A stretch of DNA of 41,427 nt from Catajapyx aquilonaris (GCA_000934665.2 JYFJ02000887.1:62001-103427); one strand, 5' to 3'. Shown: positions 6,541-41,082, counted from the first letter of the stretch. Numbers and translations: made by a program. Notes: generated by a model from the sequence alone, not told the origin.

Positions 6541-6564
6541 ACTCACCTGCAAAATAAGCGAGGG
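6541..6564 (-). other. Candidate recursive splice site (ratchet point), junction 6547|6546
   Basis: Minus strand reads ccctcgcttattttgcAG|GTGAGT: pyrimidine-rich acceptor fused to a perfect donor consensus. Confidence 0.65.
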
Positions 6565-9500
6565 TCTTCTAGGTTTAATGAAGCGCTGCTTAATGTTCCA
6601 CATGCGTCAGTGCTGCACTACCAACGCGGGACATAATAAATTTTGCATTACCCACATTCAGCTGGTGTCCACTGATGAATAACGTGGAAAATGTAGCCTC
6701 GTCGTCGGACAAGTAAGAGGAAATTAGGGCAAAGTCCGCAACGCATGCAAACCCCAAAATGAAACCATTTTTACTTGGAAGCGTCAGGAGAAAATTCCCT
6801 ACTTATAATCCCTGTTTATCGCGGATTTTCGTATTCAGGTCACCGTCGAAATACCCACAGGAAGTACCTCATCAACGAAAAAAAAACGCATGCAATGGCA
6901 CTAAGTTGCACGTTAAGATGCTCATGATGAAATTATTGCAAACATTAACATTAAGCAGGCTGCAAGTAATCCATACTTTAAGGGGACTCCAATTTTTTAT
7001 ATAAAAAACCGTTCATTGTATAGTATATATAGGCACAACTTGCTGACATGGTGCTACAGTAAGGCCTGACTAAACCGTTCCACAGTTCTAGCCTTCACAC
7101 TCATTTCACTTCGTGTAGAAAAAGCATGGTCACGTTACCCCGTTCCGGTGGAAAATGCATTACAGTCCCAAACGCTACAACTATGGGTGAGCTTGATGCA
7201 GGTCCACTGCGACTTGAACATTACATTTAAGCAAGTTATCTCAAACAAGTTCATATTTGAAAGCAGTACTTAGTTATAGATATACCGTTGCACAGTATGA
7301 AACACCATATTCGCTCGGCAGCCAATAGCAAAAAGGGTGTGGGCAGAAGAAGGAGTCGTAATCGAACCTTTTCCTTATTGGATTGCCTGTCTATTTCTGT
7401 TATCCAATGGATTTGTGACAAGGGGCAATTTTGTCGGGAGCTATCATTTTCCACGGTGGGAAAAAAAGTATCGACAGAGAATGGCAGGGCACTCTCGGTG
7501 TAACAACTTTCAGAGTGCCTTTTGCCTCGTGCTTATGCCCGCCTTTTGTCGGTAGTCTTGCTCAAGAACCCAACATAGGTGTCAAATTTTTGTATCGGTC
7601 CCAAGGTAATGGCTCTTCGCCAAATTCCCAGACCGAATCATCGTGGGAGGGAATATGTTGACTAGCCTTCTTGGAGACCCGACTTGACATCTTTGAATTT
7701 TTCTACATGGGTGTTTGCAGATGAAAGCCATGCCTGCTCTACTACCAAAAAATTGCGCTGCTTCAAATCTGCCGTTGACAGTCTGAAGTGGAGAGAGCAA
7801 TGTCTCAAGGCTGCAATGCCAGTGTCAAGTATTCAACTTTCCATTAGGATTAGACTTGTGGAGTAACTAAATTGGCCATAAGAGTTCGTGTGTTCAATTA
7901 AATTTCTCTCGTACTTTTAAAAAAGCTATTAATTTTCATGCTACCATCAATATACAGGCCTACCTGCGCAGTCATACACTGGGAGATAATGTCTGTAACA
8001 GCCGGCAGAAGAAACAGACGCAAAATTTTTGAAGTCCTGGTTACATTGAGAATTGCATTTGCATGTTTTCATGAAAATTGCTCCACTCCATATAAAATGC
8101 CGTCTCCGAAATGACTCACGTGGAACACCAGTCCAATCCGGATTTTCCCTATACAGAGTGAAGCAATAAAATGTATGTTTCCAACCTTGATGCAAACATC
8201 ATCTTTATGGGACTTGCGGGTTAGCAACCCCCTCGGGGTAGAACGAAGCCAACTCCCTCACCCATTTTCAGGCCTTTCTCCGCCACAATAGACACCCGCA
8301 GGCATATGCTAGGCTTCCCTTTTGTCCCCATAGGTATCGCACAAAGAAGCTCAGATGGAAAGTAATGATTGGGAAGCTGAAGGAGCTGGCGGTTCCTTCT
8401 TCCCCCCAATCAGTCTCAAATTGGTAATAACATTGTGTGGTAATGAATATGGGCATGCCGGCACATCCCGCTCCTAAAAATAAATTCCCTCCGGATTCGG
8501 AACAAATTATATCGCACTGCACGGCGACAAGCTGGCAGCCAACTTCATCGCCGACCATCAATATGTACAGAGGCGTGTATTGTTGAGATTATCATAGCAA
8601 AGGGTGTGCCAAATATTAGCATTTCAAGCGCCCATACTTTGTACGCCCACAGTATTACTTCGCGCGCTTTACAATTTTGCCAATAAAAAGCCAAAATATG
8701 TTGGAATAAAAGCGAGCATATATAGGTATTGCCTTCCACTTTGAACACCGAGCCAGGCGAATTATAAAATTTTCCTGCCACTATTAACCAATTACACCAG
8801 GTTTCGAAATCCGCTGCCTATCCTCCAGCAACTATCCCTGGTCCGGCCCTGCAGTGAAACATGTTTAATTGTCTTGGGATTTATTGCTCTCCGAGACGCA
8901 TTCCTCTGTATGCGGGACCTAGGAAGCTGGCTCCTGTCCACTGTCACTCGCAAATTACGATCGTGACCAGCCTAAAAAATGAACGTGAGTTGTAAAATGC
9001 GAATAATTATGCGCGGCCAGTAATACCAGGGATTTAATTTGGTTCTCAATAGTACAATAAAAATATATTAAGGAATACATATAGAATTCTGAGACTTCGT
9101 GGCGCCATAGTTTAAATGCCCTTCCACCATTTAAAGAATCCATTCCTGTGTTCAATGATCTACACCGATCCAATACTTATGCAATGGCCATGTCACCGAG
9201 TTCATCCGAGATTCCTCCTGATTCATTCCCCTCCCCTACAGTGAAGGCGACAATGACGAGGCTCATTTCCTCTCTCTTGTCTGACTGCCCTGTTCCCATC
9301 GACAAAGAGAAGTTGGACGCTCGGACAAGTTTGCACCTCCAACAAGAATCGGCAGTAGGACCAGTGGTTTGTATATGTGTGGGGATGGGAGTTCAACTGG
9401 GAAGTACAAGGGCGCTCAAAAGAGAAGGCGTTCACATGCGTGGATGGTGATGCAAAAGAGCATGAAAGTCGCTTTGTTCCCAACAAAGACCTGACAATAA

Positions 9501-10711: not shown

Positions 10712-10731
10712 GCTTACCTGTAAACAAAAGT
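10712..10731 (-). other. Candidate recursive splice site, junction 10718|10717
   Basis: Minus strand reads acttttgtttacAG|GTAAGC. A second donor AAA|GTAAGA lies 76 nt downstream (10642|10641). Confidence 0.65.
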
Positions 10732-11271
10732 GTATATATACATGCGAGTTCAATGCGAACTCAGCACGTCACACGTCGCATACATCATTGATTGCCGCTC
10801 TCATCTCCTATACGGGCATTATTTTAGGCGACTGCCAGTGTCGAGCGCAATGACACGTTTCATCGTATTAAAAAAAAAAATATATGAAAGAGATTGGATG
10901 GTGCAGGGAGGTGGGATGGGGGGTGAGCTGGTGTCGGTTTCTCATTTCCTTCCAATCGAACTGAATCCATTGTTATGCTAATTGTCGCACAATGCCGTCA
11001 CGCTTTTTACAGCTGTGTATACGGTTATACAGTGAAGCTACTTCGTGCTCCGGTTGCAGCAGTAAAAACGATCAAATCATTAAACTCCCAGCAATCGTGC
11101 GCCAAACATGTGGCATTACAATCCGAATCACTGCATTACAAAATTTACCAAATTGCTCAATTCTATGCCAGCCGATTCACCGGAGGTTTCTTCATGTTTC
11201 CTGTGTATGAGATTATTTTGCGATAACTAATCGAAACAAACGTATCGCCACATATACCGAGATTACCAACA

Positions 11272-14173: not shown

Positions 14174-17100
14174 CTGGCCCCACCTCGTGCATGTTACTCC
14201 AGCGTTGCACCGCGTCCTTGCTCGGACATTCACCTACAGAAGCGGAGAGCAAGAGACCCCCATCGGAGGGCACCGACTGACTGACTTGCTAGGACTCTCT
14301 CTCTTTGGCCCGCATGTGTGTTGCCAGGCATACCGGTACAACATCATCGCTGGAGATACACTCAGGCCTGAGAGCCTTCGCCAAACGAGAGGCCCCGGCT
14401 TGCTGTTTGCCTTGAGAGATGCCGGTCTGACCACAAGGACTCAATTGCCGTGCTGTACACTGCACAACTACACTAAAGACTGGCATTGCCCAATAGGGTA
14501 CGATATATTGCGGCTGTACTTGCTGCAAAAAACGCTCGGGAAGATTGATAAACAAGAACTGGCTGTAAAAGGTGGCTGCCAGCTTTTCGCATAACTGATA
14601 ATGATGGCCTATATGGCATCCATATAAAGGCATGTACAGGGTGATGTCGAAATTTGATGCGAGCTCAGGATCCAAACCCATTTCTAGAAAACTGGCATAA
14701 CTCAGGTCTGTCTGTATAACGGATCATGGACACAGTGGAAACTTGTCTATTACAAATTTTTTGATTGGTTCCGGTGAAGCATTTTCAGCCCATTTCAGTA
14801 GCCTATAAAACTGAAACCCGTTCAGTCAGAAAATTCCCGCGGAAAGGAGCCATTCCGTCTTTGAAAGGTTTCATTGTAGCAATTATAGGTGGTACTGTAC
14901 CCATTTCCTCGGATTTTTTCAAGATTTTACAAAATAACGCAGTTTGGCACAACTCATGAAGCATGAAGGGTTCCCCTGCCTAATTAAAAAAGCGTCTCGA
15001 GAGCAGTAGTGGAACTTGGTGTCTTTTCTACCATGGTCACATCCGGTTGTTAGCTTCGAATAGAGCATTAACTTATCGACTGGGGCGGGGAAAGTACACA
15101 GAATGGAGGCAAACATTACCTCACAGCCCCCAGCTCATGCTACTCATACATTGGGGCTAATCGGCACTTCAGGGTATGACAATAACAAAGTTTTGTGGCC
15201 GCCACGAGTAGAAATCTCGCCAGCATTTCCATTAAAAGGTCGGCCATCCCCGTCGCATGTAAACTTTTTTATGTGACTTACTAACTGCATCAAGGTAGCT
15301 AATTTAGGCGACAAACAATCCGTCCTAGAATTTCCCATTGTCGAACCTGAATTTCTGCACGCATCATTCTTCATACGCGACAAGGTAAGGCGATTTGGCA
15401 TTCGTTGCGGCTAATTAGCATTAACGAGCACCATCTTATACCTCACGTGCACCTAAAGGTTCCCGCCTGCGACCAGTTTCCACCCCGGAGGCCCTCAAAA
15501 AAAGGAATGCCCAACACAAAATTTCCCGTCCATGCTGGTCACGACCCCGAAGCATAGTGATACAAAGAGAGGCCTAAATAGCAGTCTAGCCCTAATCACT
15601 TTTGGCAGAAATAAACCGCACTTGTCCCGGGAGTCCCGAGGAGGCATTTTCAACACGAAAAGGCGTAACACTGTTCTCGAGCTGGAGTAAGGTCCAATGA
15701 ACGCAGTGATGAAGGGCCATCCATTTCTTGCGTAAGGCCACTCTTGCTTGTTAGTGCAACCAAGTGTTACTTGCACGCCTCGCCAAACACTCGCCAAACT
15801 CAGACAACTCTTCTTCATAATTCTGAGGGAGCAATTCTCCGCTGGTGAACCAAAAAAATGCGGGCGACCCCCAAATAGCCCCAAGGGACACATGGGGAGA
15901 GCTGGGTGGAAGGAGGAAATAATCTTTGTCGAAAATTCGAGCCAGTAATTGACATTTAGGCAGATAATGACGGCATTGTTTCCAGCTGGTTGAGCACGTT
16001 GCGTGCGCGGCAGGGGCCCTCATGCCACGACTCGTTACTCTGCCAGGAAAGCAGTGGGCCAGGAATGCACTTGTCTCATCACGTTCCCTTCCATCGTATA
16101 TTTTATCCGCCGGAATTATTGTGTCATCTCCTCCGGCCGGTGCCGAATTTGAATGACGTGCGTTTTGAACACGCGTACGGCTCCTACCGCCTCATTCCCA
16201 TGGGTTTCGCAAGCCATGGCCGCCAAACTGCACCCTTTTACTTTGTAATACTTTTTTTGTGTGTATATTACTGTGCGGCACCGAGGGGTGGAAAAAATAA
16301 TAATCGGTAGTTTGGAAATCTGTACTGCACATATAAGGTATAATAGAGTGGAACTCAACCGAGAAAAGAAAAAAAAAGTGGAAATCCGCAATTGGAAGTG
16401 TCGATTACTCCAACTCATTTTCGTGCCCGTCCATGCTAGAGATACGGCTTTTTTGTCCTATGAATAGTAGGCTATATATACAGTACATCAGTGAGAGAAT
16501 AACAACCTTATTTAGCAGTTCTCAAAGGCAAAAAAAAATCTTGCTTCACATCATGCTCGGTCGATTGCAATAATCAACACCCTTATTCCTCCCATGCAAA
16601 ATGAAGTTTGTTGCCAGTTCGGTTGGGCCTCACATGCAACCCACCTTGGTTGCTTTCTTTTCCCCGCGCAACACGGACGAATTGAAGTAGTGGTGGTAGT
16701 GAGGGTGCGGAGTACTGGCAAGGAACATAAGGGCCTTGGCCTACTATACCCACCAATTGGGTTCCAGCACCGCTGCATGGCTAGGCACACAGACACTGCC
16801 TACTGACCATTGCTAACGCATACAAAAGCATACCGTCGCATTCCATTTTTTCCCCCACCCCGCACTATCCAGCACGTGAGCTCATGACAACTAAAAAAAA
16901 CTATGCGACTTTTTTCCTGAGAAAGTGCGCCACGCAACTCTCACCTGTTGCATAAATGGGAAGGAGGCGGTCCCTTCAAATCCCCCGTAGGAAGTCGTAA
17001 TTATTGGCATTGTTGTGGATGAGTCTGCATATGCACGCGGTACAATATGCGATCCCAACCATGCTGCGAGGTTAAAAAACGCACAAAAAGTTGCCTATTC

Positions 17101-22000: not shown

Positions 22001-24658
22001 ATCCCTGGAGCAATTTCACTACCAATGCCAAGGAGGAGGCAGAGTGCTCCAAACTAATGTTCGTAATTTCTGTATTGCTGCATGCCTTCCAGCACTGCAA
22101 TATTGCTTCGTGAACTTGCCGCGAATCGTTGTCGTGACATGATGAATTTGCAATAAGCCCTCAGTGTGAGCTACTTTGCTAGTAATGACTTCACTTTCCT
22201 AAAGCAGTAACGTCTCTCCACATGATCGATGGCTAATACGATAATGAAGTCTAATAGCGGTCGGGGTTAGACTAGGTCGTGCCATGTATAAAAAGTACAC
22301 CGGCAGTGAAAATTCCTCTTGGGCTTATCAAAACGGTAACGGTGGAGTGTCTCACGTGGCGATAACCAACCTAGCTATCCTGTGGCTCTCAGCTTTCACG
22401 AAGGCACGGCAAAACATTCAATATTACTTCAGAGTCGTGATTGCAATAGGTTACGACGCATCTATTTCCTGCCCACTTCTCAACAGCTGTTAACCACATG
22501 TTTCTCCTGACATACGGCAGTAACTCTCCTCTAAGTTCTGCAAATACTTGTTTGGTCTCTCTGGGTGCAGGACATAACACTCGCGTCATTTGCGTCACCT
22601 GGTACCACAATTAAAGAGTCGCCGGTATACAAGATTAATTTGAAGAACTTGACAGCCGAGGTTTTCATGAACTAGACATATTGGATAACCTGCCTTCCTG
22701 TAAAAGTAATGAAACATGGTGTCATCGCAGATCCCCAAATGTGATGATGCAGCTCGGAACATATGCCAATTTCAACTGACAGTAAAACGCGACATAAGCA
22801 ACTACTGCGCCCAAAGGGCTTTAAAACTCAAAAATAAACCTCATTCGAAACCTGTATACACAACACTCACTACCCAACGCAATAAAATTCTGCAAACCTA
22901 TTTTCGCAAATAAAAAAGCGATGTAAATGGTAAGTGCAATATTAAAGCTCATTACAAACCAGATGACACTGATCAAGCAGGCCATGTTATCACATACTCG
23001 TTTCCTTATGTCGTCAGGCAAAGATTACGCACCTAAAACAATAACTGCCACTTCCGAATAAAGCACAAGAGATACGGACCACCTTCCATACGGTCCCGGC
23101 TTAATCACAGCCACAAATATTTACGACTCATATACACCTGACGCAGTGCTAGTCAGGTGAGAGATTATAGGCATGTTAAGAGCGGTAATGACAGCATGGC
23201 CAGCAGTACCGTGTATAATGTAAACCTTTCAGTAACGTTCAGTTATGTGTTCCACCCAATGACGGATAAATAAAGAATTCTCTCTTCCTCCTATTTTAAC
23301 GATCAGTTTTACGTTCAGGACTCCAGTCCCTTCCCTTTCTTGGAGTTCATTTTACGAGACTTCAAAAATGCGCGTTCCTTACCTTCCCAAATGCTTGTAC
23401 ACACTCTGAGAGCAGAGAAGCAAGCCCCTCTTTTCTTTTCCCTTTCTTTGCTCTCTTCCCTCAAAATTCCTATATGCCCTGCGCCCTGAGCAAACATATG
23501 GCCAAGCCAACAGGGTCCACAGCTCCTCGAGAAAAGGCCAGCCGGCATCTCCCCCAATTCTATTCTCTTTTACGAAAAACCAGCCAGCCCAGGCCAAAAG
23601 CCTCGCTCAGGAGGACACTGCGGGCACTTGAGCAAATCCGCCGTAATTATCCTCGCCACGCAAAGCGTAGTAGTTTCAATTAATCCTGCAAATTAATCGG
23701 CCTGTCTCTGCACCTCTCTCGTATTCTTTCTCTGCCCCTTGTACACATCCGCCCGTAGATCAAATTCGCACCATGTTTTACATCTGCACTTCGTGGGCAC
23801 ACCCTGCGTCTGTGGTTGCACTTGACTCACGCAATGTCTTTGCAATTATATCCTGAAATGCCCAGTGTAATCTTGTTAGAATTATTCAACCTATACGACG
23901 TCAATACACGAGCAGTTGTACGGCCGGCAATTGAACTTCAATATATGGCAATGTTTCTGATATATTTATGCCCAAACGGCCATTATGCCATGAACATACG
24001 TGCCAATGTGTGAAATAATTTTCAGTATGGCCTTCAAACGAGTAAAAAATGTATAACACGTTCAACGCACTTTTTCGCACGGGGTGTATTCACGGGCCAC
24101 GATGGGCATGCCTTTGAACCCCCTGCGATTACACTGTGAGACTGCTACATTGTCATCGCTCGCGGAACAATGCCCTTCGTCAGCAATTGGTGACGGAAAT
24201 AATACCGCTAGATCATCGCATAACTTTCACACGAAGGTAGGCTGAAAAAACTACTTACTACGGAGATCCCACATGATGGGCAACAGCTTTAGGCACTGAA
24301 TAATTGAGATCATTGCCGTCAGTGGTTGCGACAAAGAGGTTTTCAGCCCAGACAGACTTTACGACGGCTTGATTAAAAACCTAGACGAAACCATGGATTC
24401 CTGGAAACGATCATGACCTGAAGCCTTCAAGTTCCCGGACCCTTCCGTGACAAAACCCACCTTCACCTGCTCTCCACAGCACGGCAACACCCAGTGGGTG
24501 ACGTATGGCTCTGGATATTATTTAGTATGAGCTCTTTTTTCCCTAATTTGCACACGTTTAGCTCTCTTGACAGGGAGAAAATGCTCCTTGGTCTACCTCG
24601 TGGCAGCCACGTGAAATATGCATAAATGCCACGCATGTCCGATACTGTGATCACTCAC

Positions 24659-24694
24659 CAAAGCAGATAAGACGCCACCAAGCTGGTCACTTAC
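24659..24694 (-). other. 36-nt cryptic exon (RP/RS-exon) behind the ratchet point
   Basis: GTAAGTGACCAGCTTGGTGGCGTCTTATCTGCTTTG, bounded by the strong acceptor upstream and a second perfect donor TTG|GTGAGT (24659|24658). Confidence 0.6.
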
Positions 24695-24721
24695 CTAGAG
24701 AAGAAAAGAAACAAGAATTAA
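24689..24721 (-). other. Strong candidate recursive splice site, junction 24695|24694
   Basis: Minus strand reads ttaattcttgtttcttttcttctctAG|GTAAGT: branch-like TTAAT about 24 nt upstream, long pyrimidine tract, TAG, perfect donor. Confidence 0.75.
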
Positions 24722-27000
24722 TATAAGCCAATACCACCCAATGTATATGCATGACACACTGAGAAAATCGTGCCGATATCTCCTATCCAATAATGCGGCA
24801 CCGAAGCCAACGCCTTACGGACATGACAACATCTTGCATGCATGTAACCACCTGCAATTGATTTTCAACGGCACCCATCCTAGAGGGGACAATAAATGCA
24901 AATGTGCTCTTGTCGAAGTCCCCGCACGGATACGGTGACATCCACGCACCGAGAGACATACGTTTAGCCTTGCAAGTCACATACCAAACTAACGGTCTCA
25001 AGCTATTTGCTTGCTACTGTATCTAGCAAACGTCACTCGTGCCATCCGTTTTTTAAACCTTGATAACATTTTCGAAAGTATGTAAAATTCATTAAAAATG
25101 GGATATGCAAGACACTTCTAGTTATGTCATGACACTGTCTTATAAACACAGCAAAATGTTGGGAGGCGGCATTTAACATCACTAATAATGACAGTAAGCG
25201 TAATACCCTTGCCCTAATTTACATATGAAAACGAGTTCAGGGGACGTGGACAGGTGTCATCAGCTGAAATCCAACAGAACCAAAATGCCTAACCCTTAGC
25301 GTGCGATGCCATCCAACCCCCCTAGTCGATGGAATTTACTTTCCAACTTCCAAATGCAATTATCCGGCAATTATAGCACCTTTTACATCAAAGCCGTTAA
25401 TTTGTTGGCAAGCCACTGGCAATCCCCCAAATCGGCATCGATGCCCATGACCTAACCTCATCTCGACAGCGATTCCTATCAATCCTGATGCCCTCAATAT
25501 GCGCCCCCTCTCTCTGACACGAGGAAAATAATAGGCTAATCTCCCCTGAATCGAGGTACGCCCCTGAAGGGATAATGAAGTCATTGAAGTAACCTCCTTC
25601 CCTGAGGTATACTATAATGGTATACAAAAATGATGCTTTTGGCCCTAATTATAAGTGGCATGTGGAAGTGGAATTTGGAAGTTAATTTGAGTACACGTCA
25701 AGTAAACTCATTGACCACCTGCCGTTCAAATTCCACACGTGAGAAGATTCAAGTAATTTTAATCAACCTTTAAATCGGAATATGATTAGCCAGTATCAGT
25801 AATCACACGTAATACGCTCGTAAAAATTAAATAAATCCACCAGGTTTACTGTTCCGACACCACAACCATATCCGCTGGCCAAAAGCGACGGGATGTTGCG
25901 GTTGGAGTGTAAACGAGCCACCTGCCGCCCAATTTGATAATATCAAGGACATATTTTGTGTCTTCATCTCTCTTTCACATTTTTCCCCCCTATCCACCTT
26001 CCCCTACTTCTTCGTGGGAGACGAAAATGCTGTTTGGAGGAAGGCATTTAATAAAAAGCGAAATGACTTCGTGCGTGAAGTACTGCCAGAACAGGTGTTT
26101 TATACTTTTGGTTCCGATGGCTGACTGCACATGTCCCCCTGCTGGCATGCAATCGATTGCGCCTGTTTCAACCTCTCCACCCCGTTATGTGGGATGCAAT
26201 CATCGCCTTTTTGGCTCACTTGAGGCATCCACTTGTCACGCTTCCCACAATTTATGAACGACCCTCCACCAACACCTGTACTTCCTATGTGACAAAAAAC
26301 TGTTTCCTCTCTTTTCCAAACCAGGAATTCCCGATATCCCACGTATGATTCCACACTCGCAGAAAATTCAACGTCAGTAAATCCACACACGCTCTATGCT
26401 CCTATAGCTCAGCCTTTATGAACAGGCCTTTATGAAGGTGAGAATTATCATGGAAATTCCACGAAGCCCAGGCTGACCTAATTCAACGTTTATAACCCAA
26501 GCCAGAGTCCTGGAGGGACATGCATCAAAATCAATGAAACGAATGACGCTCTGGGAAGCATGGTTCAGCTTCCCTTCCGCTGCGGGCCAGCAACAGGTGG
26601 ACCTCTTCCTTCCCATCCTATATAGCTAGGGGAACTGGAGGAAATTGGTTTTCGGGCGGAGGCAAGACGCTCCACCGCCTCTCCAAAGTTCTAATCGAAG
26701 GGAACTAACCTAAGTTCAGGCCACCAACCCCCCCTTCTCATGCTCCTCACACCCCATCCCTGTTTATACCCGCAAATATATATTGGGTATGTGTCGGATG
26801 CACCAGTGATTTTTCCTTCGCGACGCATCGGTGCGTCATAATGGCACCTGGTTTAACCATGGTCATCAATATCTTAATACCGGTAATCATTCCTGCGATT
26901 GCATTAAAGGCCTGCTGCAAGGCTTCCCACGCGAAAACACGGCCCGGGTATCTCTCACCTATTCTATACACTCAAGGATGCTCGAGCCAGATATATATTC

Positions 27001-27028
27001 CCCCCNCCTCCCCCCCCCCCCCCCCCCC
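27001..27028. repeat. Poly-C run (contains N; assembly-uncertain)
   Basis: cccccncctccccccccccccccccccc. Confidence 0.7.
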
Positions 27029-27292
27029 AAGCCGTGCTTTCTATAGGAAAGAGGAGAAAAATTTCAGGGGAGGCTATATACATGGGGGGAGAAATGATCC
27101 CGATTTCTCCCTATTCCATCCCCCTTCTACAGCAGGTTGCGCAACCGATGGGAACAGCAGATAGCCCGTCAGGTGATTTGCTTACTGGGGGATCGATATT
27201 TGAATTTCAAGAAGCCATCAAGAGCCGAGTAGGATCTGATAATGAAAGATGTATGGGAGGAATCCCTTTCCAGGGAAAATTCCCCTTCTCTT

Positions 27293-27329
27293 CCCCCCCC
27301 NCCCCCCCCCCCCCCCCCCCTTTTTTTTT
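27293..27329. repeat. Poly-C run followed by T run (contains N)
   Basis: Directly visible homopolymers. Confidence 0.7.
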
Positions 27330-32300: not shown

Positions 32301-33571
32301 TTCATTCCTCCTCCTCTTCTCCAGTTCTCCCACCCTCTTTTTCCCGCGAGATGAAATTCCAGCTCCGTCATATCTATAATGCAGCAGGTAAATCCTACAG
32401 TACAGCAGAAGAGCAAACTGTGCACGGCACATCGTTACGGTCAAGAATTAATCAGTACCACTGGGGAAATTAGATTTCAAATAGACTTCAAACTGTATTA
32501 CTTATATTCCAATTCATTCCCCGAAAACTCCCACTGTTCACGCTAATTTCCCCACGCAGTGTAGTTTTAATTATCTACAGTATAAAAATTAGTTAATTAC
32601 TACCGTGATAAAGCGTATAATACGCCCGTCAACCTAAGTTCAGCCTAGCATTCCTGATCACAATTAAAATTCACTTCTCCAAGACGCGATAAAAGTACAG
32701 TACATTACTTACAGAATAAGTTCAAACGATCAATTTGAAAACTCTGAAATAACTTTCTGTTACTGAAATTACTTTTCACGCGCCTGACAAGTGCAAAACC
32801 AACCTGCCAAAAGCATAACACCCTAAATATCGTTTCAAGTCACATAGAAGGGGCCGTCTAATCGTCTCTCTGTTACGTGTCCCAAGTCTCTTGTCACAAG
32901 AAGTCCTCTTGATTTTGGAGCACGTCGACAGTAATTAGCGCCTCATTGGCAAAGCAGCGGCTTCAGTCACATCTTCCTCCCCCGCACCCACAGAGCGCCC
33001 ACTCTTTGAAGTTTTTTAANCCCCCGCCTTTTTTTTCAACTACTCCTATTTTCTCCCCCTTCTCTTTTCACATTTCGCCAGGCGAAAACCAGACTCTTCC
33101 TTCCCTAATTTTATCAGCGAGGCTTTGAAGTTCAGCAGAACTATGTTGGGCCAAGATGTTCCTCCGTCGCTACTTTGCTCGTCCGTAAAACCATACACTT
33201 TCAAACTGCACATAACATGAAACTGGAATCAATTTTAAGCAAAGGTGACCGCTCTTGTTATGACAAAACACGATTAAGAATCGTGCAGATTCGAGTCATG
33301 CACAGAGCATGTAATGCATTTCAGGTCATGCAGTACTAGATTAAAACTGCATAATTTCGCATGACATCAGAAGCAAAAAATGTAGCAAGCATGCCGTATA
33401 AGCGCTGATGAACCCATTGTTTCCTAATCTAACTGCAATTACCATCGAAATAGTCGAGATAATGCTGGTGTCACTCAATCGGCTGGATTATGGTCTCCGA
33501 GATCCGCACTAGGTGGGAAAACGCACATGAATTACGCAGCACAATAATGGTAGGGGAAAAAATAAATAAAG

Positions 33572-33607: not shown

Positions 33608-33680
33608 AGCCCTCTCCGGGACTCGAACCCGGCGCCTTCGGCACGTACTGCCGACGCTCTGCCACCTGAGCTACGAGAGC
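33608..33680 (-). tRNA. tRNA-like cloverleaf, nominal anticodon TAC (Val), probably a pseudo-tRNA or SINE head
   Basis: GCTCTCG TA GCTC AGGTGGCA GAGC G TCGGC AGTACGT GCCGA AGGCG CCGGG TTCGAGT CCCGG AGAGGGC T: perfect D, anticodon and T stems and intact A/B boxes, but A32/G33 instead of Y32/U33, G48, and a G7:A66 mismatch. Confidence 0.7.
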
Positions 33681-36600
33681 GTTTTTATTCTCGGTACTGG
33701 GATGGTCCAAGGAATGTTATCAAATCATAACTCGGGATAATAAAAGAACTGGATGAGGTTCGGGTAATACCGGCCCTTGGTGTCTAAATCAGCGAAATAA
33801 TAGCTTCCGGGGAGTTGGCTAGGACCGGAGCTGGGGATGGGGGCTTGGGAAGGAAGCAACAGGTGGTTCCAGCATCTGGTCCAGAAGAGAGGCTGATGGG
33901 TGGGCGGATCACGTTTCCTATCCCGTTCACACCACACGGCGCCGATTTCATAAACGGAACATGAAGCGCCCAAAATTTGGAGGTTGTGTATACGAACACA
34001 ACTCTCAGATTACATACATGTAACTACAGCCTTGATAAACCGGGAGCGTACTTTTAAAATGCCCCCAACTATTTCTAGAATCTACAAGCAGTGTAAAAAT
34101 AATCTCCCCTTCCGCTCATATAGTCGTGGCCGTACAGGTGCACGCTAGCATGTCCGAATAAAGAATGAACCATCTCCCCCTGGTTCCTCCTCCCTGATAC
34201 CCCCTTCCCTGCTTTACACCCGCACAAATGCACGTGCACGCGACAGTCAACTGGCCCGCAACACCCTTCCAGTCCAGGCTTTATGCCTGACTACTGGCCT
34301 GTTTCCATGGGAACCCCGAGGAAAAGGCATGCAGGCCTCCCCAGCACCCCCCTCCACCAAATAAAAACTTTATATCAAAACCTTTTAAAAAAAAGGAGGC
34401 GAATTGGAAAGTTCGTTACAGTCCTCCCTCAGGAGTTCGCTCATTGCGACAAGTTGTCCCGCAAGAGCGGCTCCGGATACCGGTTACACCCCCTTCTAAA
34501 ATGATTCTCTTCCCTCGGCAGACTCCATAAGCTGATTAAAGAACCTGCTGAGTGCTCAAACTCCCGGATAAGTGGACATCAATTGCAATTCAGCCCGGAA
34601 CATGTCACCTCGACGCTTCTCTCCGGGGATCTCCTTGCGACTTTGCACAACAACCATTTATTTACCGCCGAGCGGGGCGCTACAAAACTTCCCGAGTTCG
34701 CGGTGCATACAACGTGTTGGCGACCTCCCATTTTCTGGAAGCCCGGATCCTCCAATTAATTAGCGAGGAAACCCTTGCGCTACTCATTATCTTACATATG
34801 GAGGGTATAGCTACAAAAATGCTGGCTAACGAATGTTGGAATCAATTCAATAGCACTTTCTCATCCGCGAAAATTTTCGGGGGCGACGACGTATACGTAT
34901 AGGAACTTGGCGGACACAATCCCTCATCACTTACACAACTTTCCCATTTAACCATTCGCGAAAATGAGCCGCGCAACACAATTCATCGCCCGCCTTCATT
35001 ATCCCTCTTCAACCCGGCGGTAAATTTTCGTACACTGAATTTATAACTGAATAACTTTTTCGCTTGTTTCTGGGCGCTGAGAGAACGGTTAGAACTTTCC
35101 TGGATGACAAGTCGGTACATTTCCATGGGTTTTAGTTTCTGTCGCGTTTTCAATCGAAAAGTTGGCCGTCACCCTCGGATTTAACTTTATACGCGATACA
35201 CTCTAAAATGCTATATATACACTCCATACCGACAGCTATATGCTTTGAACATGCCTATAAGTTACTTGTAAATCCGGCACTGTTGATGTCGAATATGTTA
35301 TACTGTAGGCTATATATGATGGCCATTAATTCCGCATAATAGGAACCTTTAAGTAACGAATCCTTCACAAATTCCACAACCGAAATGATTTATAGCAACT
35401 TTGGCAGGAAATGCCATTAAAAAGATAACCCATTGTCAGTAATCGCGACGTCAACCAATGACTGCGCTTATGACTAAGCTATATACACGTATAGACTTCA
35501 TCACCATCTCGGAATCAGATCCATCCTAAAATGCATTATTTTATCCGAATGACTGTTACAGAGAGGAATAGCAGAAATGTTTGTTTCAGCACAAAAGCAA
35601 GGCTTTCAGACGAACACGACTTCGCTGCATTTACACAGACTTCAAGACAGTTCTGTCATGAAAAGAGAGAAATCTTTTGTAAATATATCGACTGGAGTTC
35701 AAACCATATATACTGTATTGCAGTTCGGCTCATTCAAAGCTATCGGGCTATGTGCACAAGGAAATGGCGTTTCAGCACGAATACAACTTTGAGCATATAA
35801 CATTATGTTCATATGTTCAAATGTCAAGGTTAAATACAAGCGTACAAAGGACTTAATATTTCGACCCTCAATGCCCTGCACTATGCACACTTGCTTTGAT
35901 TTCAGTCGGAGTATTCCATTTGTAGGAGTCCTGCCAGAGACAAATGACTATAGGGTATGCAATCAAAACAGAGGGATGTGCTGGGACACCAGGTACATAA
36001 AAAATTGATTTCGCTTCCACTTGGACAAACACCACCATTTAAAAAAAAACAACAACAAGATGGCATGTTCCAGAGTGGGGGGAGGATGTTGAAATAAAAA
36101 TTAACTGTATTTGCATCTTGTATACAGTAGTATATTCAGAGATTAATAAATTCCAAATATAAAATCCGCCCCGACTACAATTTACGTGCAGAGCAACTTT
36201 TTAAACCCCACTTTTCGATTTTACAAATAAAATATTTACGAGTGTGAAACAAAAGCAAATGTAGATGTGAATTATGCAGTATCAACGCAGCCAACCTTTT
36301 CCACCCCATCCACATGAGAGCACCTCCACCGACCTGCCTGCATGTCGTAGCACAAAACTCTGGTCACTGCGATTAAATATTGGGACAAGGGCTCAGCAGG
36401 ATCATCTACACAGTTATTTGGTTCTCCCACAGGGTCTATATATGCAGACACCATGTTCCGATTTGCTCATAAAGAGATTCCAGAAAAAAAAGAGAGTTCG
36501 CCTCCACTGCAAATACCCTACTCCCTTCGCATACATTGCATCCAGCAGCATTCCGCCACATTACACACAATCGCCTACGCCAGGGATTCGTAGACTGATC

Positions 36601-37470: not shown

Positions 37471-37502
37471 ACCTACCTGTAGAAGAAAGATAAGAAGAGA
37501 GC
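37471..37502 (-). other. Strong candidate recursive splice site, junction 37477|37476
   Basis: Minus strand reads gctctcttcttatctttcttctacAG|GTAGGT: over 20 nt of pyrimidine tract, CAG, near-consensus donor. Confidence 0.65.

Positions 37503-41051: not shown

Positions 41052-41082
<31 letters not shown>
41029..41082. repeat. ACGATATACAC 11-mer tandem grading into a (TA)n microsatellite
   Basis: Two full 11-mer copies plus a partial copy, then (TA)n up to an N at 41083. Confidence 0.85.

Follow-up and report, generated by a model that had tools for sequence, protein, structure and literature searches.

A candidate recursive splice site with a 36-nt cryptic exon on the minus strand of a non-coding stretch of Catajapyx aquilonaris DNA

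We analyzed a 41,427-nucleotide (nt) stretch of Catajapyx aquilonaris DNA (GCA_000934665.2 JYFJ02000887.1:62001-103427), hereafter the window, in which a splice acceptor motif and a splice donor motif are fused on the minus strand at 24695|24694 and a second donor motif follows exactly 36 nt later (positions count from the first letter of the window). We propose that the fused motif is a recursive splice site, or ratchet point. In the reading we favor, it would be one of at least three such sites in a very long minus-strand intron, and the 36-nt unit would be a recursive splice (RS) exon that is normally skipped; our confidence in this reading stands midway between belief and doubt. The site combines a branch-like motif, a pyrimidine tract, an acceptor and two donors, and fused sites of this kind exceed chance expectation. 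All strong examples in the window lie on the same strand, and the DNA around them is non-coding and strand-skewed. As a fly-type ratchet point the site is a candidate, since one sequence feature of the fly sites is absent from it.

The fused acceptor and donor at 24695|24694

The preliminary description of this region had named a branch-like TTAAT, a pyrimidine tract and TAG|GTAAGT, with a second donor, TTG|GTGAGT, 36 nt after the first. We read the minus strand directly and found every one of these elements in its place. The features of the site are as follows.

24717..24721, minus strand: branch-point-like TTAAT, which fits YTRAY and places the presumed branch A at 24718, that is, at −24 from the acceptor (motif match only)
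24697..24716, minus strand: polypyrimidine tract TCTTGTTTCTTTTCTTCTCT, with pyrimidines (Y) at 19 of the 20 nt preceding the AG
24695..24696, minus strand: AG of the candidate recursive-site acceptor, junction 24695|24694
24689..24694, minus strand: ratchet-point donor GTAAGT, an 8/9 match to MAG|GTRAGT in its genomic context
24659..24694, minus strand: candidate RS-exon of exactly 36 nt, with frame 0 translated as VSDQLGGVLSAL (sequence reading and translation)
24653..24658, minus strand: RS-exon donor GTGAGT (TTG|GTGAGT), with 7/9 consensus matches

In the 5' to 3' direction of the minus strand, the site runs ...tattaattcttgtttcttttcttctctag|gtaagtgaccagcttggtggcgtcttatctgctttg|gtgagtgatc..., with TAG spanning 24697-24695 and GTAAGT next to it. 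The pattern Y10-N-Y-AG-GTRAGT is matched exactly.

This arrangement corresponds to a published model of recursive splicing. As set out in an excerpt of PMC8605326, an acceptor and a downstream donor define the ratchet point as a short cryptic exon, to which the upstream exon is spliced; the regenerated donor then outcompetes the RS-exon donor, and the cryptic exon is lost together with the intron segment that follows it. The same excerpt states that a short RS-exon of about 50 nt is required in flies. Branch points of fly ratchet points have been mapped at −36 to −21 (Duff preprint, 10.1101/006163). At 24695 we found a prominent polypyrimidine tract, a short unit closed by GTGAGT 36 nt downstream, and, within the 21 to 36 nt upstream where the branch nucleotide is usually an A, the A of TTAAT at −24, which is a motif match only. 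Judged from its sequence, the site carries every element that the model needs.

Applied to the window, the model would proceed as follows. The acceptor (TTAAT, the pyrimidine tract and TAG) and GTGAGT would together define the 36-nt unit as a tiny exon, and the upstream exon, or an earlier ratchet point at 37477 (listed below), would be spliced to 24694. Once joined, the exon end would abut GTAAGT and a strong donor would be regenerated at 24694, with bases −3 to −1 of the upstream exon replacing the genomic ones. This donor would then be used towards 16945, 14234 or the true downstream exon, so that the 36 nt would be removed as part of the following intron segment, leaving no trace of the site in the mRNA. 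Use of GTGAGT instead would include the 36 nt, presumably as a minority outcome. Skipping is what we would expect as the main outcome, though not with confidence.

We compared the site with chance expectation in several ways. With at most one mismatch allowed, the window contains two matches to Y10-N-Y-AG-GTRAGT, each of them on the minus strand, where 0.03 would be expected; two such matches were reached in 0/100 dinucleotide-preserving shuffles. The combination of at least 17 pyrimidines in 20 nt and a perfect GTRAGT was observed once, against 0.003 expected (1000 order-2 Markov simulations per strand). Downstream of a random minus-strand position, a second GTRAGT has a probability of 0.013 within 40 nt and 0.039 within 100 nt. 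The fused site is more than a chance occurrence.

Further fused sites and the strand asymmetry of the window

We scanned both strands for acceptor-like AGs fused to a donor-like hexamer and called a site strong when it had at least 17 pyrimidines in 20 nt and at least 5/6 of GTRAGT. Three strong sites were found on the minus strand, where 0.025 are expected per strand, and none on the plus strand; 0/1000 order-2 Markov simulations reached three. Among strong acceptor-like AGs (Y ≥ 17/20), a donor-like hexamer followed 3/9 on the minus strand and 0/21 on the plus strand. Since such a hexamer follows any AG with a frequency of 0.0089, the expected number among the nine is 0.08 (P = 5.6e-5 for three). 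Looser AGGTRAG sites with Y of at least 13 numbered four on the minus strand and zero on the plus strand, whose best three sites reached Y of only 10 to 12. Besides the 24695 site, the minus strand holds the following candidates.

37471..37496, minus strand: sibling candidate recursive site TCTTCTTATCTTTCTTCTACAG|GTAGGT (CAG|GTAGGT), junction 37477|37476, Y 18/20
14228..14253, minus strand: sibling candidate recursive site CTCTTGCTCTCCGCTTCTGTAG|GTGAAT (TAG|GTGAAT), junction 14234|14233, Y 17/20
16939..16964, minus strand: weaker candidate ...CCCATTTATGCAACAG|GTGAGA (CAG|GTGAGA), junction 16945|16944, Y 15/20
6541..6567, minus strand: weaker candidate ...CGCTTATTTTGCAG|GTGAGT (GCAG|GTGAGT), junction 6547|6546, Y 13/20, TT at −5/−6
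10712..10738, minus strand: weaker candidate ...ACACTTTTGTTTACAG|GTAAGC (ACAG|GTAAGC), junction 10718|10717, Y 13/20, TT at −5/−6

The 37477 site sits 12.8 kilobases (kb) upstream of the 24695 site in the direction of transcription, and successive strong sites are separated by 12.8 and 10.5 kb. Distances of this order are known for fly recursive segments, for which an excerpt of PMC6110457 gives a mean of 9.1 kb and the Duff preprint (10.1101/006163) a mean of 18 kb (range 2.6-63.6 kb). The 14234 site has a possible RS-exon of its own, 60 nt long and ending at CAG|GTGACG (14173). When the four best sites were aligned, no similarity was found outside the motif. As they share only the motif, and as the window has no internal repeats of 40 nt or more, these sites are not copies of one repeat. 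At the junctions 37477, 24695, 16945 and 14234, positions −8 (T), −6 (C) and +7 (G) are invariant in addition to AG|GT, a post hoc observation on four sites.

The window around these sites has a G+C content of 45%, a CpG observed/expected ratio of 0.81 and four single Ns, and we found no sign of coding sequence in it. We searched 401/498 open reading frames (ORFs) of at least 45 amino acids (aa) from both strands against Pfam and obtained no match above a curated cut-off. This search covered 101/101 ORFs of at least 85 aa and, among those of 45-84 aa, 188/188 on the minus strand and 112/209 on the plus strand, with the 97 shortest plus-strand ORFs (45-59 aa) left out. The period-3 spectrum likewise did not rise above the shuffled level anywhere in the window (maximum 3.4 vs 3.9).

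The two strands differ in composition. On the plus strand, C exceeds G (10492 vs 8380) and A exceeds T (11752 vs 10799), for a GC skew of −0.11 and an AT skew of +0.04. C outnumbers G in 20/20 bins of 2 kb, and the GC skew is zero or positive in only 4/41 bins of 1 kb; no skew-domain boundary lies inside the window. Runs of at least 8 nt on the plus strand comprise 17 of A and 5 of T, hence the minus strand is rich in T-runs. An excerpt of PMC10030826 describes an excess of G+T as marking the non-template strand of human genes, and T over A and G over C in human and mouse introns. The strand skew would fit a transcription unit that runs on the minus strand through the entire window. With regard to a long sense-strand intron (more than about 8-11 kb), the 41-kb window is without coding signal and its minus strand is G+T-rich.

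The skew and the absent coding signal would fit any long minus-strand transcript equally well, and not just the intron of a protein-coding gene. The fused sites might be part of a primary transcript that is long and non-coding, or of a strand-specific process different from recursive intron removal, for example as alternative terminal or first exons of a minus-strand RNA. Exons of long non-coding RNAs (lncRNAs), however, need not begin with GTRAGT, and we know of no role other than resplicing for a strong acceptor fused directly to a donor consensus. We regard this explanation as quite improbable.

Several considerations weigh against the recursive splice sites that we favor. The thresholds for strong sites were set after a first listing had been seen, so the P values are somewhat optimistic; the strand contrast of the fused sites is independent of these thresholds. 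Only the 24695 site combines a consensus branch motif with a perfect donor downstream, and the 37477 site has no donor of at least 7/9 within 160 nt downstream. Transcription-linked GC skew in mammalian introns is a few percent. The skew of 0.11 exceeds these values and may therefore have another cause. The two donors at 24695 are close in strength (8/9 vs 7/9), so that skipping of the 36 nt is not assured. We infer minus-strand transcription, the intron and every splicing step from sequence, and this limit on the intron itself also counts here. Finally, positions −6 and −5 are C and T, respectively, in each of the three strong sites (CTTCT-N-Y-AG), where 196/197 D. melanogaster ratchet points have TT at −5/−6 (Duff preprint, 10.1101/006163). 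TT is thus absent at 24695, 37477 and 14234 and present at the weaker 6547 and 10718, in terms of a rule that was derived from Drosophila and may not be that of the host. Either these sites are not ratchet points, or at least not of the fly type, or the host is no drosophilid and has an acceptor preference of its own.

The departure from the fly rule also speaks for another explanation, in which the motifs are non-functional look-alikes, produced by chance or local composition in DNA where no splicing takes place at these points and which may be intergenic or unexpressed. The 24695 site was picked from very many windows, so one perfect motif is expected somewhere even at a per-window expectation of 0.003 to 0.03, and the open frame of the 36-nt unit is a chance property, as described in the next section. 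Such selection, however, covers one site and does not account for the two further strong sites, which share its strand while the opposite strand has none. It also leaves unexplained both the consensus donor 36 nt downstream (P = 0.013) and the fact that the site-bearing strand is the one rich in G+T and in T-runs. We consider look-alikes unlikely on the whole, while giving them real weight, and continue to favor a series of recursive splice sites in a minus-strand intron.

Frame, structure and possible inclusion of the 36-nt unit

The preliminary description had emphasized that the 36-nt unit is open only in phase 0, and had suggested that donor choice could determine whether the product gains nothing or an insertion of 12 aa. 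The frames are as it described them: frame 0 is open, frame 1 opens on a stop codon and frame 2 meets a stop at codon 2. The stops of frames 1 and 2, however, are the TAA and TGA contained in GTAAGTGA. Openness in a given frame is also common, being found for 57% of all minus-strand windows of 36 nt and for 63% of 30-nt stretches after GTAAGT. Because the stops in the other frames belong to GTAAGTGA, and because 57% of windows are open anyway, the phase-0 openness carries no weight and is a by-product of the donor consensus combined with chance. A length that is a multiple of 3 arises 1 time in 3, and a unit that is both frame-preserving and open arises roughly 1 time in 5 (0.33 x 0.6). A coding role for the unit finds no support beyond these chance properties (frame 57%, length 33%). 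Of the interpretation as a whole, the part that held is the anatomy, which fits a recursive site with a short RS-exon, and the part that lacked support is the coding proposal. Donor choice could in principle alternate between a product of zero length and one with 12 added aa. Inclusion would add these 12 aa if the host intron is of phase 0, and would bring in a premature stop (TAA or TGA) in phases 1 and 2.

The same properties bear on another explanation, in which the 36-nt unit is a conventional small exon that is included constitutively or alternatively and contributes 12 aa or lies in an untranslated region or lncRNA, or else is an expressed RS-exon similar to mI and mII of Ubx. The unit has a length divisible by 3 and an open frame 0, a strong acceptor precedes it, a perfect GTGAGT follows it, and the two donors are near-equal in consensus strength. 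Expressed RS-exons are also known: an excerpt of PMC8605326 counts fewer than 50 in flies and possibly thousands in mammals, with Ubx mI and mII as the validated case. As noted, openness and length count for little, and no coding periodicity was found anywhere nearby. The sibling sites 37477 and 14234 moreover look zero-length, which favors a series of ratchet points over an isolated exon. We regard a small included exon as improbable, and a normally skipped RS-exon within a ratchet-point series remains the account that we prefer.

Sequence searches with the unit were of limited use here. A codon-degenerate pattern for the 36-nt unit and both donors, which encodes the 12-aa unit, gave 0 matches in metagenome contigs, where relatives are unlikely, and the exact 23-nt core of the site gave 0 matches in metagenome, prokaryote-genome and viral contigs. 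These blanks are uninformative because the collections contain few or no eukaryote genomes. Four 14-nt strings of site sequence had no literal match in the literature.

We also examined RNA structure. The 111 nt around the 24695 site fold no better than shuffled sequences (z = +0.69). Within this region, a hairpin is predicted at 24659-24697 on the minus strand, formed between AG|GUAAGUG at the ratchet-point junction and CUUAUCU, which lies in the 3' half of the 36-nt unit; the 45-nt segment has a predicted energy of −11.3 kcal/mol. The hairpin is not significant: 145/1000 shuffles had a minimum free energy at least as low, and 52/1000 had donor pairing at least as high. If formed, it could bias the choice of donor.

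A bolder proposal would unite several of these observations. The window would represent a lineage outside the drosophilids and vertebrates, the two groups for which recursive splicing is documented, with an acceptor signature of its own, CTTCT-N-Y-AG|GT with C at −6. The 24695 site would then form an RS-exon that is expressed under regulation, its two near-equal donors and the weak hairpin switching between no insertion and an in-frame insertion of 12 aa. We hold this combination to be very improbable.

Relation to known recursive splice sites and other features of the window

The nearest comparison for the series of ratchet points that we propose is with the Drosophila ratchet points that carry cryptic RS-exons (Hatton 1998; Burnette 2005; Duff 2015; Joseph, Kondo and Lai 2018; Joseph et al. 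2021, PMC8605326). Shared with the Drosophila sites are the fusion of acceptor and GTAAGT at AG|GT, a prominent pyrimidine tract and a branch motif some 24 nt upstream. The candidate cryptic exon is short and ends in a second donor, at 36 nt here vs about 50 nt in flies, and several sites occur roughly 10 kb apart in one long non-coding stretch. The sites differ from those of Drosophila in the C at −6 of the three strong sites, where the fly sites have TT at −5/−6 in 196/197 cases, and in the candidate RS-exon, which is in frame and open, whereas cryptic RS-exons of flies are generally out of frame.

A second comparison is with vertebrate recursive splice sites with RS-exons, which were reportedly described by Sibley and colleagues in 2015. 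The shared points are the exon-definition model, in which the RS-exon is recognized first and the regenerated donor then competes with the RS-exon donor, and the consequence of inclusion, which would be a poison exon or an insertion. CpG observed/expected ratios of vertebrate genomes are lower than that of the window (0.81), and in this the setting is unlike that of vertebrate RS sites. An excerpt of PMC8605326 gives only nine fully suppressed intronic sites as definitively noted in mammals. With so few noted there, three or four sites in 25 kb would be unusual for a mammal.

The microexons mI and mII of Ubx (51 nt) offer a third comparison. Like them, the 36-nt unit is small, opens with a donor consensus, is divisible by 3 in length and has an open frame. 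In Ubx, donor choice decides between inclusion and skipping, and the same would apply to the 36-nt unit, which is known here as a sequence. The Ubx microexons are conserved across all 51 nt, wobble positions included, according to an excerpt of PMC8605326.

If the 24695 site is used, the window would provide a worked example, found from sequence, of a long intron in which several ratchet points delimit segments of about 10 kb. The placement of the sites on one strand would, if the reading is true, assign a strand to an unannotated transcription unit, and a lineage-specific acceptor signature, with C at −6 in place of the TT of flies, would be a small new fact on how such sites are recognized. 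A real site would be a further case of the kind known from flies and vertebrates. It opens no new question, as the mechanism, the requirement for an RS-exon and the competition between donors are already established in those groups.

The window contains a few other features. One 59-aa ORF (8795-8971, minus strand) has a sub-threshold match to DUF3663, a peptidase N-terminal domain (E = 2.3e-4, 21.5 bits vs a cut-off of 25), which is probably due to chance because 150 ORFs were included in that scan. Three short tandem arrays are the only ones present. Two poly-C tracts of about 27-30 nt lie on the plus strand at 27000-27030 and 27293-27329, separated by about 262 nt of unique sequence. Each is broken by one N, one of the two also by a T, and the second continues into T9. 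The only other sub-threshold Pfam match, to PRIMA1 (17.5 bits vs a cut-off of 38.6), fell on the poly-proline translation of a poly-C tract and was rejected. The Ns at 33020 and 41083 adjoin a T-run and an (AT)14 array (41054-41082), respectively. As the Ns stand beside simple runs, they mark uncertain repeat lengths.

A search of the window against Rfam with gathering filters gave no match, and with E-value filters it gave only a tRNA-like element and four sub-threshold microRNA matches. The tRNA-like element, at 33609-33681 on the minus strand, scored 40.8 bits against the Rfam tRNA model with these permissive filters (gathering score 29) and was predicted by ARAGORN to be a tRNA-Val (TAC). 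In its anticodon loop a G replaces the expected U33, its acceptor stem has a mismatch, and a T-run follows about 30 nt downstream. The element lies on the same strand as the splice candidates and may represent a tRNA pseudogene or, alternatively, the head of a short interspersed element (SINE) of tRNA origin.

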